Source of the DNA: a virus
Taxonomy: Duplodnaviria; Caudoviricetes
DNA length: 64,000 nucleotides
Reading direction: 5' to 3' (one strand)
Virus record (IMG/VR): IMGVR_UViG_3300031993_000010
Span: 64,001-128,000 of that record
Notes under the pieces: generated by a model
Told to the model about the DNA's origin: nothing
Database searches by the model: none
What the model saw: only the letters and a program-made list of their open reading frames with translations
Part shown: in pieces, positions 31,594 to 57,843 of the stretch
How positions within the stretch are numbered: position 1 is the stretch's first letter
Layout: each line of letters begins with the position of its first letter
Made by a program: the position numbers and the translations under genes

Positions 31594-32202
31594 ATGAAGA
31601 CAAAACAGGTATTAAAAATATTAAAAGTAACAAGACCGACATTGACCAAATACGTCAAAAACGGACGTATAAAGGTCAAAGAGATGCCAAACGGTTTCTA
31701 TGAATACAATGACGATGACGTGTTCAAAGCCGCAAATATTTCGCCGTCTCGCAAATGTGTCATTTATGCACGTGTCTCAACACAGAAACAGAAACGGGAT
31801 TTACAAAACCAGATTGACGTGATACGCGAATATGCAAACAAAAACGGTTATACGGTCGAGAGAGTATATTCTGACGTCGCAAGCGGATTAAACTATGACC
31901 GTGGTGAGTTTCAGGAAATGCTCAACGAAATATTGGCGTACAAAATCAAAACAGTCATTGTTTCAAACAAAGACAGGCTAACAAGAGTTTCGTTTGGCAT
32001 GTGGCAACAACTGTTCGGACAATTCTCATGTGATTTGGTCGTTGCAAACAACGATGATGCCGAGAACGAAAACAGCGAGAATGAGATTTTCGAGGATATC
32101 ATTTCGTTGCTTCATTGTTTCGCCATGCGGATGTATTCGGCAAGGAGGAAAAAGAAAATAACACTTATTGAGGAAGACATGAAAAATGAGATTGGTTTAT
32201 AA
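31594..32202 (+). CDS. tnpA: IS607 serine recombinase TnpA
   Basis: N-terminal HTH; YARVSTQKQ, DVASG, KDRLTR. Confidence 0.92.
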   Translation: MKTKQVLKILKVTRPTLTKYVKNGRIKVKEMPNGFYEYNDDDVFKAANISPSRKCVIYARVSTQKQKRDLQNQIDVIREYANKNGYTVERVYSDVASGLNYDRGEFQEMLNEILAYKIKTVIVSNKDRLTRVSFGMWQQLFGQFSCDLVVANNDDAENENSENEIFEDIISLLHCFAMRMYSARRKKKITLIEEDMKNEIGL

Positions 32203-33403
32203 GTTTGACATAAAACACAACGAAAAACTATATGAATTGTGTAAGGTTTCAAAAAACCTTTACAACCAGGCGTTGTATATTGTCAGACACGAACTGAAGG
32301 AAAACAACAAATGGTTGGGGTACGGGCAACTTAACACAATCCTTCAGGACACATTCAATCTCGATGGCGAAATTAACTACAGACTGCTAAAAGCACAAGT
32401 CGCACAACAGTGCTTGAGGGCATTGGACAAGAACATTAAATCTTATGTCAAATCAATCAAGGATTTCTCTAAGAATCCCTCAAAATACAAAGGACGTCCG
32501 AAACTTCCAAAGTATAAGAAAGAAGCAAACCAACTCATATACACCAACCAATGCTCAACAATAAAAGACGGTTACATACATCTCTCAAAAGAACTGAAGA
32601 TACGCATCCCGCAGTACGGGAAGTACGGGAAAGAATTGGTGGATTTCCAACAGATAAGGGTGGCACCAAAGATGGATAAGACATTTACGGTTGAGATTGT
32701 ATACCTATCCGAAAGGAATACCGATACAGACTTGGATTACAAGCAGTACGCTTCCATCGACTTGGGAGTAGACAATCTCGCAACAATGATATTGTACGGT
32801 GAAGAACCGATGCTTTTCAACGGAAGACAACTGAAAGCGAAAAACCAATATTTCAATAAAATAACATCAGAACTAAAAAGTAAGTTAACCAATGGACAAA
32901 AAACGAGCAAAAGAATTAAGCGGCTCTACATAAAGCGTGACAACCAAGTAACCGACATGTTTCACAAACTGTCCAGGAGAATAGTCAATCTGTTAATAGA
33001 ACACAAGGTAGGCAACCTCGTTGTAGGTTACAATAAGGGATGGAAAGACTCCATAAACATCGGTAAACGAAACAACCAGACGTTTGTTGGCATACCATAT
33101 GCAAAACTGATATATTTCCTGAGGTATAAATGTGAGATGTGTGGGATAAACTTGGTGGTTAACGAAGAGAGTTACACGTCCAAGTGCGACGCATTGGCAA
33201 TGGAACCTATTGGGAAACATGAGGAATACAAAGGAAAACGTGTCAAACGCGGGATATTTCAATCCTCGACAGGGAAGTTGGTCAATGCGGATGTCAACGG
33301 GGCGTTGAACATAATGAGAAAAGCAGTCGGTGATTCCGAGTGTGTCACAAGGATAATCGATAGTGGTCGGCTGTTCCGACCGGTAAGAATAAACATTTTA
33401 TAA
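32186..33403 (+). CDS. tnpB: RNA-guided nuclease TnpB
   Basis: SKNLYN, IDLGVDNL, EESYTSK, NADVNGALNI. Confidence 0.92.
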   Translation: MRLVYKFDIKHNEKLYELCKVSKNLYNQALYIVRHELKENNKWLGYGQLNTILQDTFNLDGEINYRLLKAQVAQQCLRALDKNIKSYVKSIKDFSKNPSKYKGRPKLPKYKKEANQLIYTNQCSTIKDGYIHLSKELKIRIPQYGKYGKELVDFQQIRVAPKMDKTFTVEIVYLSERNTDTDLDYKQYASIDLGVDNLATMILYGEEPMLFNGRQLKAKNQYFNKITSELKSKLTNGQKTSKRIKRLYIKRDNQVTDMFHKLSRRIVNLLIEHKVGNLVVGYNKGWKDSINIGKRNNQTFVGIPYAKLIYFLRYKCEMCGINLVVNEESYTSKCDALAMEPIGKHEEYKGKRVKRGIFQSSTGKLVNADVNGALNIMRKAVGDSECVTRIIDSGRLFRPVRINIL

Positions 33404-44340: not shown

Positions 44341-45087
44341 ATGAAAATGATAAATTTGGTGAAGAACAAAATAAGGAAAGCCGTCAGGGAAGTGTTGAAC
44401 GAGAATGTTGTCGGATACCCGATGCACTTCAGGACAATATACGATGACATAGGAGACGGACTCCTGATAAACGAGGGTCTGATAAAAACCTATCCATTGT
44501 CGTATGTACAGAAATACTTTGACAGACGATATGTGTTCGACATACGTGAGAAATACTTCAACGACAACGATTGGAAGGTCATCCTCGTACTGCCGTCAAA
44601 ATCCGATAAAGCGCAGGAGATTACCGATGTCTTGAACAGGTTTGGATATTATCTTGGCTACAAGGAAGAGAATGACAGGGGGCTTTGCCTTCAGTTCGAG
44701 CCTAAATTCCAGAACAAGTTCACAGGACAGCAAATGAAAGAAGTCGGGTGCAAATACCTGATACATGTTTCCCCGATGTACAATCAGGAAAAGATAATGG
44801 CAAACGGGTTGTGCCCCACAAGTAGAAACGGCGAGTTCAGTTATCCGAACAGGATATACTTATTCCTTGATACTGTGTCGGACAGGGAGTTGGAAAGCAT
44901 GGTAAGCAGACTTTCCGCCTCGAACAAGAGCAAGGGAAACGACGGCAGGTATTGCGTCTTCAACGTAAGCCTTGAAGGTCTTGAGGAACACACGTTTAAC
45001 CTTGACTTCAACATGGACAACGCTGTCTTCACCGAGGAAAACATCCCCCCGACAAACCTGCAATTGGTGAAAATCCTCAATGTTTAA
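44341..45087 (+). CDS. ART/KptA(Tpt1)-like domain protein, paralog of 56043..56828
   Basis: HVSP...I...GL.P...YPNRIYL...FTEENIPP.NL. Confidence 0.55.
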   Translation: MKMINLVKNKIRKAVREVLNENVVGYPMHFRTIYDDIGDGLLINEGLIKTYPLSYVQKYFDRRYVFDIREKYFNDNDWKVILVLPSKSDKAQEITDVLNRFGYYLGYKEENDRGLCLQFEPKFQNKFTGQQMKEVGCKYLIHVSPMYNQEKIMANGLCPTSRNGEFSYPNRIYLFLDTVSDRELESMVSRLSASNKSKGNDGRYCVFNVSLEGLEEHTFNLDFNMDNAVFTEENIPPTNLQLVKILNV

Positions 45088-50496: not shown

Positions 50497-51594
50497 ATGG
50501 AGTATAACGAAGACAATTTTAGAAATGCAAAACCATTTGATTTATTTGAATTCACATGTGAAAATTGTGGATGTACTTTTACGCAAAACAAAAGATACAT
50601 TGTAAAATGTGGGGGTAAAATACCACGTTATTGTTCAAGTAAATGCCGAGGGGAAGCAAAGAAGACGTTAATTAAAGTGCATTGTGCGGAATGTGGAAAA
50701 GAAAAGTTTGTTCGGAAACACGAATACGAAACAAGTAAGACAGGTAATTTCTTTTGTTCTGAATTACATGCTGCGATGTTTAATAATAAAGGACGTAAGC
50801 ATAAAAATGAAACGAAAAGATTATTAAGTGAAAAAGAATTTAATATTTTAAATAAAAATGTTGAATACATAGAAAATGATACAGTTTGTCCAATATGTGG
50901 TAATAGAAAAACTTCTATGTCCGGTGTTTGTAAAAAGTGTTCAGACAGGGCAAATTATGAAGAATATGAAAACAAAACATTGGGTGAAGTGCTTGGTGAA
51001 AACACTACGTATACAACTAAGTTGTGTTCCACAATAAGAAAACACGCAAGAAGAAAGATGGAGGAAGGGTCAGTTGAAAAGGTATGTGCTTATTGCGAGA
51101 ACCATGAATATGATGAAATATTAGAAGTACACCACATAAAAGGTATACTAACATTTAACCGTGAAACAAAAATAAAGGAAATAAATGACTACAAGAACCT
51201 TTTATGGTTATGCCCAAATCACCATCAAATGTTGGAAAAAGGGTTAATAAGTATAGAAGATATTGACTTGGAAAAGCATCAAAGTGTAGAAGAATCGGAT
51301 GGGTTCTCCCACAAAGAAGTTAAGGACATTATCAAGTCTAATATAGAAAAAAGAATATCTGCAGGTTATTCATACAAAACCCCAAAAAAGGAACAATTGA
51401 CAAAAGAAGAGGTTGCATTTAATCAGCGTAGATGTGAATGGCCTTCAAAAGAAGAATTGTTGGGTTTAATAAAAACAATTTCATTTGAAGCAATTGGAAG
51501 GCGGTATGGGGTTACGGGAAACACGGTGAAGAAATGGTGTAAACGTTATGGATTGCCAAGTAGAAAATGTGATATAAAAGAGATAACAGAATAA
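50497..51594 (+). CDS. HNH endonuclease with zinc fingers
   Basis: CAYC...LEVHHI...NDYKNLLWLCPNHH; C-terminal HTH; AT-rich. Confidence 0.82.
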   Translation: MEYNEDNFRNAKPFDLFEFTCENCGCTFTQNKRYIVKCGGKIPRYCSSKCRGEAKKTLIKVHCAECGKEKFVRKHEYETSKTGNFFCSELHAAMFNNKGRKHKNETKRLLSEKEFNILNKNVEYIENDTVCPICGNRKTSMSGVCKKCSDRANYEEYENKTLGEVLGENTTYTTKLCSTIRKHARRKMEEGSVEKVCAYCENHEYDEILEVHHIKGILTFNRETKIKEINDYKNLLWLCPNHHQMLEKGLISIEDIDLEKHQSVEESDGFSHKEVKDIIKSNIEKRISAGYSYKTPKKEQLTKEEVAFNQRRCEWPSKEELLGLIKTISFEAIGRRYGVTGNTVKKWCKRYGLPSRKCDIKEITE

Positions 51595-55499: not shown

Positions 55500-55922
55500 A
55501 TGATTATGAGTAACAAAGTTAGAAATGATTGTATTTGCATAAATTGTGGTAAAGTTTTTTATCCACAGAAAAATACAACAGGTAAATATTGCAGCAACAA
55601 ATGTCAACAGGAATATCAATCTCATCAAAAATATCTCAATTATTTGGCCGACCCTTCAAAGTATATGAAGGGATGTAATATGAAATGGATAAAGAAACAC
55701 ATACTGCAAGAACAGGGATATAAATGCGCTATATGTAATATGCCTAATAGTTGGAATGGTAAGGTATTGATATTCATATTAGACCATATTGATGGACATG
55801 CCCATAATAACAATAGGTCAAACCTTAGGCTTATATGTCCTAATTGCGATTCTCAATTAGACACTTATAAAAGCAAAAACAAGAAAAGCGATAGGATTTA
55901 TTACCACTTTCATCATAGATAA
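55500..55922 (+). CDS. HNH endonuclease
   Basis: CAIC...LDHIDG...NN..SNLRLICPNC. Confidence 0.88.
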   Translation: MIMSNKVRNDCICINCGKVFYPQKNTTGKYCSNKCQQEYQSHQKYLNYLADPSKYMKGCNMKWIKKHILQEQGYKCAICNMPNSWNGKVLIFILDHIDGHAHNNNRSNLRLICPNCDSQLDTYKSKNKKSDRIYYHFHHR

Positions 55923-56042: not shown

Positions 56043-56828
56043 ATGGAAGAAAAAAATATATTGAAGGAACACATTAGGAACATAGTCAAGCAAACGATTC
56101 GTACCTTGTGCGGTACTGAGCCTGTTTTTCCATCACAACCCTTAAAGCGCTATCCGTCAAAATTGGAGATTGCGATGAAGAAAGACCTGAACGAAGGTCT
56201 GATAAGGACATATCCGATGGAATGGGTTGAGAAATACCTTTCCACAAGGTTCAACTCGGATTTTGTCAAGGGTGGTGTGGATGACGAGGTTATGCATTTT
56301 TGGTTCATACTGAAGAAGGGCAGCAAGTCAATTGAACCGCTGAAGCAGAAGATGGATTCATTCGGTTATTTCTGTTCGGCTGAGGACAACGTTACCGAAG
56401 GCGTGTATCTGCAGTTCGAGCCGAAGTATGATGAATACAAGACAGGTGAGGAATTTTCAAGTAGAGATAATGACGAGATATTCTTCTATCACGTTACACC
56501 ATTGTTTTTAGCAAATAAAATAAAAGTCAGCGGTTTGGTACCGAAATCCAAAAATGAGTTTCTCAATTATCCCGACCGTGTTTACCTTACCTTGGCTGAT
56601 GACGGAAAAGAGACTGCATATGAAATGGCTGACATGCTGTATACAAATTCAGGCAACAAAATGAACGATGGCAAATACTGTTTAATAGGTGTTACATTGA
56701 ACGGTTTGGAAAAGGCTAAGTTCTACCCCGACTGGAATGTGTCACACGCCACTGCCTATTTCACTTACGACAACATACCGCCACAGAACCTGAAGTTTCT
56801 GGAAACCTTCGAGGCTCAGAAGGCATAG
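56043..56828 (+). CDS. ART/KptA(Tpt1)-like domain protein, paralog of 44341..45087
   Basis: YHVTP...I...GLVP...YPDRVYL...FTYDNIPPQNL. Confidence 0.55.
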   Translation: MEEKNILKEHIRNIVKQTIRTLCGTEPVFPSQPLKRYPSKLEIAMKKDLNEGLIRTYPMEWVEKYLSTRFNSDFVKGGVDDEVMHFWFILKKGSKSIEPLKQKMDSFGYFCSAEDNVTEGVYLQFEPKYDEYKTGEEFSSRDNDEIFFYHVTPLFLANKIKVSGLVPKSKNEFLNYPDRVYLTLADDGKETAYEMADMLYTNSGNKMNDGKYCLIGVTLNGLEKAKFYPDWNVSHATAYFTYDNIPPQNLKFLETFEAQKA

Positions 56829-56830
56829 AC

Positions 56831-56903
56831 GGCTCCGTAGCCCAACGGAAGAGGCGGAACACTTAGGATGTTCACAGTATAGGTTCGAATCCTATCGGGG
56901 CTA
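56831..56903 (+). tRNA. tRNA-Leu(TAG), short variable loop
   Basis: GAACA-CTTAGGA-TGTTC. Confidence 0.8.
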
Positions 56904-57043
56904 CTTGACTTTAGGAAACCGTGTACATGTTGACAGAAAATTGAAAAAACGTGTAAAGCCATCCTGTATACATGTGGATAACACGTTTTTTAAATGTAAA
57001 ATATCTTGTATAATATTGAATCTTAATGCTATATAAAAATTAT

Positions 57044-57210
57044 ACTGTGTTGGAATACACTTTTAGAGGTATTTACAACGAATATTGTTTTACAATTGAT
57101 TTTATCGCACTGTGTTGGAATACACTTTTAGAGGTATTTACAACGGTTATCTACCTTGCCTTTGAGCGACTTGTACTGTGTTGGAATACAGTTGAGGGGT
57201 TATTTATGAC
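57044..57210 (+). CRISPR. CRISPR mini-array: two identical and one degenerate 36-bp repeat, two spacers, no cas genes in window
   Basis: ACTGTGTTGGAATACACTTTTAGAGGTATTTACAAC at 57044 and 57109; degenerate copy at 57175; spacers of 29 and 30 bp; AT-rich leader. Confidence 0.8.
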
Positions 57211-57246
57211 CAACTGACAATTAATAAATAAACAAATAAAATAAAC

Positions 57247-57843
57247 ATGAAGAGACTTTTGAGTTTGATTGCCGTTGCGACAGTTGCTGTCGTGATGGTT
57301 GCTTGCCACAGAAGCAAGCCCGTTGAGCCGACCGTTGTCGGTTATGACTATTACACTGAGGTGTGCGGTGACTATGACTACATTGCATCGCAGTACGACA
57401 CTTTCTACTTCTATGAGGCTGACGTGCTGTACAACATCTGCTTCAATGAAGAGGGTGACCGTTACATCACCTCAATCACCACTGTTTTCCAGATTGGTGA
57501 CACCTGCATCAGAATCGTGCACAGGGAAGGTGCCTATGACCAAGCCCCCGACACATTGGTTGACGCAGGCTATTGGATGGAATGCATGCCTTGCGACCCA
57601 CGTGTCGACGTGACCCTTGAGGAGGCGGTCGAATGTGCGATTGACGAGGAACTGCCCACGAGAGCCATGACTTTCAGACGCATACTTGCACCCCCATTCC
57701 CCGAGTGCGGACAGTACATATTCGGTGTAGGTCTGCTGTTCATTGACGGATGCAACGACGTTGTTGATGTTGAATACGACTATCCCGAGTTCGTCGAAGG
57801 ATACCTCTCGGACACTCTCATCGAGAATGAAGAAAACCTCTAA
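57247..57843 (+). CDS. acidic lipoprotein
   Basis: Signal peptide with MVAC lipobox. Confidence 0.7.
   Translation: MKRLLSLIAVATVAVVMVACHRSKPVEPTVVGYDYYTEVCGDYDYIASQYDTFYFYEADVLYNICFNEEGDRYITSITTVFQIGDTCIRIVHREGAYDQAPDTLVDAGYWMECMPCDPRVDVTLEEAVECAIDEELPTRAMTFRRILAPPFPECGQYIFGVGLLFIDGCNDVVDVEYDYPEFVEGYLSDTLIENEENL

Follow-up and report, generated by a model that had tools for sequence, protein, structure and literature searches.

CRISPR-Cas-lambda is the closest described system to the array analysed here. It was represented in our comparisons by Cas-lambda1 (PDB 8DC2), Cas-lambda2 (PDB 9IZM-9IZS; PMC12141684) and the homologues of PMC11576732, a study in which Cas-lambda homologues from rumen phages were already described and only two of six homologues cut DNA. 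Cas-lambda2 uses no tracrRNA, binds the upstream repeat, recognises a TTR PAM and cuts the spacer at 16–18 nt even without a downstream repeat (PMC12141684). Two other kinds of phage-borne repeat also bear on the locus. Virus-borne mini-arrays carry one or two spacers and a leader in a phage genome with no adjacent cas gene, and they have host-identical repeats and use host Cas (PMC6858448; PMC11656645). Racr (PMC10651486) and Cracr (10.1101/2024.10.29.618823) are cas-free repeat units in phage genomes.

The present array lies in a 64,000-nt stretch of virus DNA, hereafter the window. It shares with CRISPR-Cas-lambda a repeat of 36 nt in which a few unpaired bases at the 5' end precede a G:C-closed hairpin that runs to the last base, spacers of ~30 nt, a short leader after the effector gene (here a remnant), a bovine rumen jumbo phage as carrier and an effector with a RuvC D-E-D triad. 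Compared with this system, the array exhibits certain discrepancies. It is located at least 106 kb from the intact effector, if the assemblies are collinear, and behind a gene remnant only; its hairpin closes at G(-31) and leaves a 5-nt overhang, whereas that of Cas-lambda2 closes at G(-33) and leaves 3 nt. The array has the spacer number, leader and phage setting of a mini-array, but its repeat is of the class of a phage-encoded effector, and, unlike inter-virus mini-arrays, it showed no targeting of related viruses in IMG/VR, the phage collections or ten Cas-lambda phage records. In contrast to the solitary, host-like Racr units, it comprises three phage-class repeats and two spacers of normal size, and in contrast to Cracr it has no seed match to a cas promoter longer than 10 nt in the ~0.74 Mb searched, which comprised G000 and Cas-lambda loci.

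Structure of the array

The record (G000) is a 227,189-bp linear virus contig from a bovine gut sample, and relatives of it occur in gut runs from goats and cattle. CheckV estimates 62% completeness, which implies a genome of ~366 kb. A TAnnTTTG-containing motif, which we take to be the Bacteroidota promoter consensus, occurs 11 times in the record, and the host is presumably a member of the Bacteroidota.

The cassette is located directly 3' of a tRNA-Leu gene, the final one of 29 tRNA/tmRNA calls (Table 1). The array is composed of two identical 36-nt repeats and a degenerate third, with spacers of 29 and 30 nt, all exactly as quoted in the original prediction, and is the sole exact duplication of at least 20 nt at 45–100 nt spacing in the 227-kb record. 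The third repeat (R3) keeps its 5' 16 nt unchanged and matches R1 and R2 at 28 of 36 positions. Folding of the repeat, also foreseen in the prediction, was recovered by computation as a hairpin over positions 6–36 that leaves the 5-nt 5' end unpaired (-6.7 kcal/mol, z only -1.3); covariation for this fold is weak, with 70 of 500 shuffles scoring as high. A 63-aa ORF that overlaps the array was considered as a conserved protein and rejected: it clusters with no other protein, matches neither Pfam nor PHROG and is a by-product of the repeats.

Table 1. Features of the cassette and its flanks (window coordinates).
Feature	Position	Strand	Basis or remark
tRNA-Leu(TAG)	56831..56904	+	ARAGORN, Rfam; 5' flank, outside cassette
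Whole cassette, ~310 bp	56907..57215	+	BLASTN break against related contigs
cas-lambda gene-end remnant, decayed, frameshifted	56921..56981	+	DNA alignment to L021 and L038
Hairpin and T-run	56940..56995	+	Arms 56940-56954 and 56981-56995
Leader, 62 nt, Cas-lambda-type	56982..57043	+	Alignment to L021 leader
Repeat 1 (R1), Cas-lambda class	57044..57079	+	5-nt 5' overhang and 31-nt hairpin
Spacer 1, 29 nt	57080..57108	+	Predicted guide: first 16-18 nt
Repeat 2 (R2)	57109..57144	+	Identical to R1
Spacer 2, 30 nt	57145..57174	+	Sequence
Degenerate terminal repeat (R3)	57175..57210	+	28/36 against R1; hairpin lost
198-aa lipoprotein-like gene	57247..57843	+	3' flank, outside cassette

The repeat is of the Cas-lambda class

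Viral and metagenome sequences were scanned for the repeat. The exact repeat has no match in IMG/VR, where looser patterns gave matches, and Rfam contains no CRISPR repeat family that matches it. A two-repeat pattern led to L006, in which seven repeats that agree with that of the window at 33 of 36 positions lie 73 nt behind a 771-aa ORF (P0001), which matches Cas-lambda1 with an E value of 3e-123. Related repeats are located right behind further Cas-lambda homologues in L021 (28/30), L024 (30/34), L058 (33/36), L038 (26/29), L082 (27/29) and L062 (30/36). The 5-nt overhang and 31-nt hairpin are common to the repeats of these loci, and the effectors found with this G(-31) form group in a single supported clade (95/93); at the other Cas-lambda loci the hairpin is the longer one known from Cas-lambda2. 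All multi-spacer arrays with a window-type repeat found in the viral and metagenome scans sit behind a phage cas-lambda gene. These scans gave phage contexts only, with no repeat copy beside cas9 or cas13. The assignment to type II or VI-B, which had been drawn from the 36/30 geometry, is not supported by these scans, since near-identical repeats (30–33/36) adjoin phage genes of Cas-lambda, a type V effector.

Other arrangements were also seen. In L033 (2465-2700) and L034 (2464-2700), the array does not directly follow the Cas-lambda homologue but is located over 1 kb upstream of the gene segment that was matched. The phage arrays of L002/L013, L007/L010, L008 and L011/L015 have a similar repeat 3' end and a different 5' part, and nearby ORFs of 250–430 aa in L008, L010 and L011 look TnpB-like. 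A solitary degenerate repeat (29/36), identical in the two close relatives L036 (2975-3010) and L038 (3868-3903), lies just after a KTSC gene, 4–5 kb upstream of cas-lambda; its hairpin is retained with one compensatory pair, and it may be a relic or a regulatory RNA.

A gene remnant and a leader precede the array

Window positions 56921-57073 align unbroken to a stretch of L021 that comprises the 3'-terminal 60 nt of P0002, a 62-nt leader and the first repeat, with 76% identity over 157 nt and an E value of 4e-24 for the whole stretch. When the pre-leader part alone was compared with whole coding sequences, it aligned to the final 60 nt of the gene in L021 (0 of 300 shuffles as good) and in L038 (2 of 300), and to the same position in L024 at a level that is not significant. 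The remnant is frameshifted and carries a stop at the homologous position (56979-56981). Its identification is made on DNA, and the alignment at the protein level is not significant. The leader is ~77% identical to the L021 leader of equal length and 53–59% identical to other Cas-lambda leaders, in a calculation whose segment borders are 3 nt off. Identity to L021 rises from 62% in the gene tail through 77% in the leader to 93% in the repeat, and R1 equals R2. This gradient also fits a recent arrival from an unsampled donor, because intact loci, when compared with one another, likewise agree best in their repeats.

The AT-rich leader with a hairpin in the original prediction was correct in its hairpin (z -2.5, 0 of 200 shuffles) and too wide in its extent, because part of that leader is the remnant of the cas gene; the hairpin straddles the old gene end and the leader. 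Together with the T-run, it may act as a terminator of read-through from the tRNA cluster; a terminator scan did not call it at this position. The leader has no Bacteroidota-type -7 motif, and its sigma-70 site scores only at chance level.

The cassette is thus very probably a detached fragment from a second Cas-lambda locus, made of the tail of a cas-lambda gene, a leader and a two-spacer array. It is an orphan array and not a complete locus, because only a ~60-nt gene remnant adjoins it and the 227 kb of the record hold no effector. Judged by these alignments, the donor appears to resemble the P0002 lineage, a sister of the phage's own effector.

The cassette is absent from close relatives

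BLASTN alignments to L039 and L040 stop at G000 position 120906 and resume at 121215, which correspond to window positions 56906 and 57215. Four related contigs (L039-L042) are without 56907-57215, and in these the tRNA-Leu is followed within ~45 nt by a lipoprotein-like gene of 197 aa, which is conserved with or without the cassette. The cassette is therefore not a conserved feature, since at least four close relatives lack it. L043 (1-45) carries an IS605-like right end at this tRNA-Leu site, which suggests that the site is an insertion hotspot. The whole locus may once have been present here and then been deleted, or the fragment alone may have arrived; both histories are compatible with the alignments.

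Other genes of the tRNA cluster include two HNH-type endonuclease genes (window 50497-51594 and 55500-55922, + strand), the latter of which is absent at that position in L039, L040 and L042. The gene upstream of tRNA-Leu (56043-56828, +) has no Pfam or PHROG match; tblastn places a paralogue of it at ~44341-45087, near the other end of the cluster.

The phage very probably encodes its own Cas-lambda

Neither Cas-lambda nor cas1 was found in the window or in the 227 kb of G000 (~62% of the genome). A TnpB gene at 32186-33403 (+; 405 aa, PF01385 and PF07282) was rejected as the effector, because it lies 24 kb off and has no link to the repeat. Multiple observations connect the record with P0003, a 781-aa Cas-lambda that matches Cas-lambda2 with an E value of 2e-145, retains an intact RuvC triad (D345/E552/D716) and shares ~40% identity with those Cas-lambda homologues whose repeats form the longer hairpin. 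The longest contig is 364,702 bp for six window proteins, three other G000 proteins and P0003 alike, and also for close homologues of three P0003 neighbour genes; this length agrees with the size implied by CheckV. A single run contains both P0003 and the 198-aa gene of the window, and their gene clusters co-occur in three further runs. The likely source run contains a 5,790-bp contig, equal in size to the P0003 contig, at a depth of 17.2 (phage 17.1/17.6). The shared longest contig, run and depth strongly support that the phage encodes a full Cas-lambda of its own (P0003) in the part missing from the record, and since G000 extends 121 kb to the left and 106 kb to the right of the array without an effector, these flanks set its minimum distance from the array. 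The original prediction had offered a phage effector encoded elsewhere as a fallback, and this linkage supports it. The absence of a cas gene stands for the window as regards Cas-lambda and cas1, but the label 'Cas-less' fails for the phage as a whole because the record is a fragment.

The 5,790-bp contig ends in a leader and repeat with four differences from the window over 43 nt. L082 also differs at four positions, of which two belong to the leader; the remaining two are in the repeat and preserve its pairing. Judged from these relatives, the P0003-adjacent repeat probably differs from that of the window by ~2 nt and keeps its pairing.

Other cas-lambda genes of the group are interrupted. 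An allele 99% identical to P0003 (L062, 161-2506) is split by an internal TAG into 572 and ~200 aa, and the repeat of that locus differs from the window's at six positions with the same fold. In L036 (10318-11237) and L037 (3394-4213), an IS200/IS605 element (tnpA) occupies the last codons of the cas-lambda gene P0019 and separates it from the usual array position. An identical 44-nt piece of the IS end is present at G000 149550-149593, outside the window.

Spacer targets

Neither spacer has a credible match in IMG/VR, the phage collections or the ten Cas-lambda phage records, which cover rumen phages only in part; in BLAST searches of phage and plasmid collections, no E value was below 0.1. 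Missing spacer matches are usual for uncultured rumen phages. For spacer 1, twelve 20-nt matches in IMG/VR fall into few sequence groups, agree at 20–23 of 29 positions, lack a TTR PAM and were set aside as chance. For spacer 2, three 17-nt matches without a PAM were rejected, as was a TTA-flanked 19-nt match in a Saccharibacteria MAG (24/30), which is at chance level for a pattern of ~20 nt in 596 Gb searched on both strands. No PAM-adjacent seed longer than 10 nt occurs in G000 or the Cas-lambda loci examined (~0.74 Mb, both strands).

Discussion

The reading that we prefer, at a probability of roughly 0.55, sees in the cassette a second, orphaned Cas-lambda array which the resident nuclease could use in trans. 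Transcription of the + strand would yield the repeat-1/spacer-1 and repeat-2/spacer-2 units, which P0003 would bind through the repeat hairpin. Its RuvC domain would trim them to guides of 16–18 nt, with neither a tracrRNA nor a downstream repeat needed, and the guides would direct DNA cutting beside a TTR PAM, most likely in competing phages. The array would in this way add two spacers in trans to a system in which no cas1 was found. If processing follows the ruler mechanism of Cas-lambda2, each of the two units could be turned into a guide and R3 would be dispensable, so that its decay would be immaterial. The identity of R1 and R2 next to a decaying gene tail, and the pairing that is kept across the repeat changes relative to the P0003-type contig, favour such use. 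Against it stand the lack of any protospacer found, of a promoter match above chance and of the cassette in relatives, the hairpin that may block read-through, the repeat of the 99% allele in L062, which is six nucleotides away, and the DNA cutting seen for only two of six homologues in PMC11576732, which makes the activity of P0003 itself less certain.

The same points are accommodated by a less probable but serious reading, in which a Cas-lambda fragment of the same origin is an inert relic that is untranscribed or no longer useful and is being lost. The broken gene tail, the degenerate R3, the absence from relatives at a site that also takes IS ends, and the lack of a promoter match and of targets are consistent with such loss, and disruption of Cas-lambda loci is frequent among these phages, as by the internal stop in L062 and the IS insertion in L036/L037. 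However, a relic does not readily explain the identity and complete pairing of R1 and R2 or the full length of the leader beside a gene tail that has acquired indels, and the lack of spacer matches counts for little in uncultured rumen phages. An assembly artefact, in which the tRNA side and the cas-lambda side were wrongly joined at a shared repeat, is the least probable reading of all: Logan contigs do break at the repeat, but the run contains two leader contigs that are distinct from each other and equal in depth, relatives have the flanking genes side by side, and an ORF spanning the whole array is present in both JGI/IMG and ENA.

Two further readings assign the array a different partner or role. 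RNAs of a regulatory or decoy array might tune or titrate the phage's own or a rival Cas-lambda, or repress a promoter that they match in part, in the manner of crlRNA or Cracr. Arrays of this kind are known from types I and V-A (10.1101/2024.10.29.618823), the AT-rich spacer 1 resembles a promoter, and cas-free repeat copies occur in small phages. This role is nevertheless unlikely, given the lack of a PAM-adjacent seed longer than 10 nt in the sequences searched, the normal spacer size and the gene remnant, which points to plain descent from a full locus. The original prediction preferred the hijacking of a host effector, of type II or VI-B, by the mini-array, or a role as RNA anti-CRISPR towards a host system. 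It drew on the 36-nt repeat, the ~30-nt spacers and the window without a cas gene, and the GTTG...CAAC closing stem is as in Bacteroidota VI-B repeats. These, however, pair from position 1, and the hairpin here starts at position 6. The repeat class, with every multi-spacer array of the viral and metagenome scans located behind cas-lambda, the missing Rfam match and the cas-lambda 3' remnant in the cassette speak against both versions, and a phage with its own intact Cas-lambda has no need to borrow a host enzyme. This prediction is largely refuted, and we rank it below a regulatory role.

Cas-free copies of the repeat are also present in other, small phages. L057 (5911-5946, -) and L061 (2029-2064, +; L063 appears to be the same contig) carry single repeats, and L059 (889-989, +) carries a repeat-spacer-repeat unit. 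These repeats agree with the window's at 32–34 of 36 positions and are located in tail modules, in the vicinity of a tape-measure or major tail gene. In each of these loci, CAAC and an A/C-rich tail come after the last repeat, as does a terminator-like hairpin in L057 and L059. They fit the Racr/Cracr pattern better than the window array does and, by analogy, are possible candidates for RNA anti-CRISPRs or hijack arrays directed at the Cas-lambda of jumbo phages. The contigs are fragments of 4–8 kb, so a cas gene elsewhere in these genomes is possible. RNA anti-CRISPRs against a phage-encoded Cas would be new if confirmed, as no such report was found in the literature searched.

A wider scheme is speculative and, in our view, doubtful: jumbo phages that have Cas-lambda and no adaptation module might capture leader-and-array cassettes of sister phages at a tRNA-end site as satellite arrays that act in trans, and the cas-free repeats of small co-infecting phages might jam or borrow the nuclease. 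The analysis corrects the label of a 'Cas-less' array on a partial genome, which belongs to a known system of the phage's own, and extends Cas-lambda by a clade that includes several intact effectors and has a shorter hairpin in the repeat. If the use in trans of the orphaned array is true, it would be one route by which a phage CRISPR system without cas1 gains new spacers.
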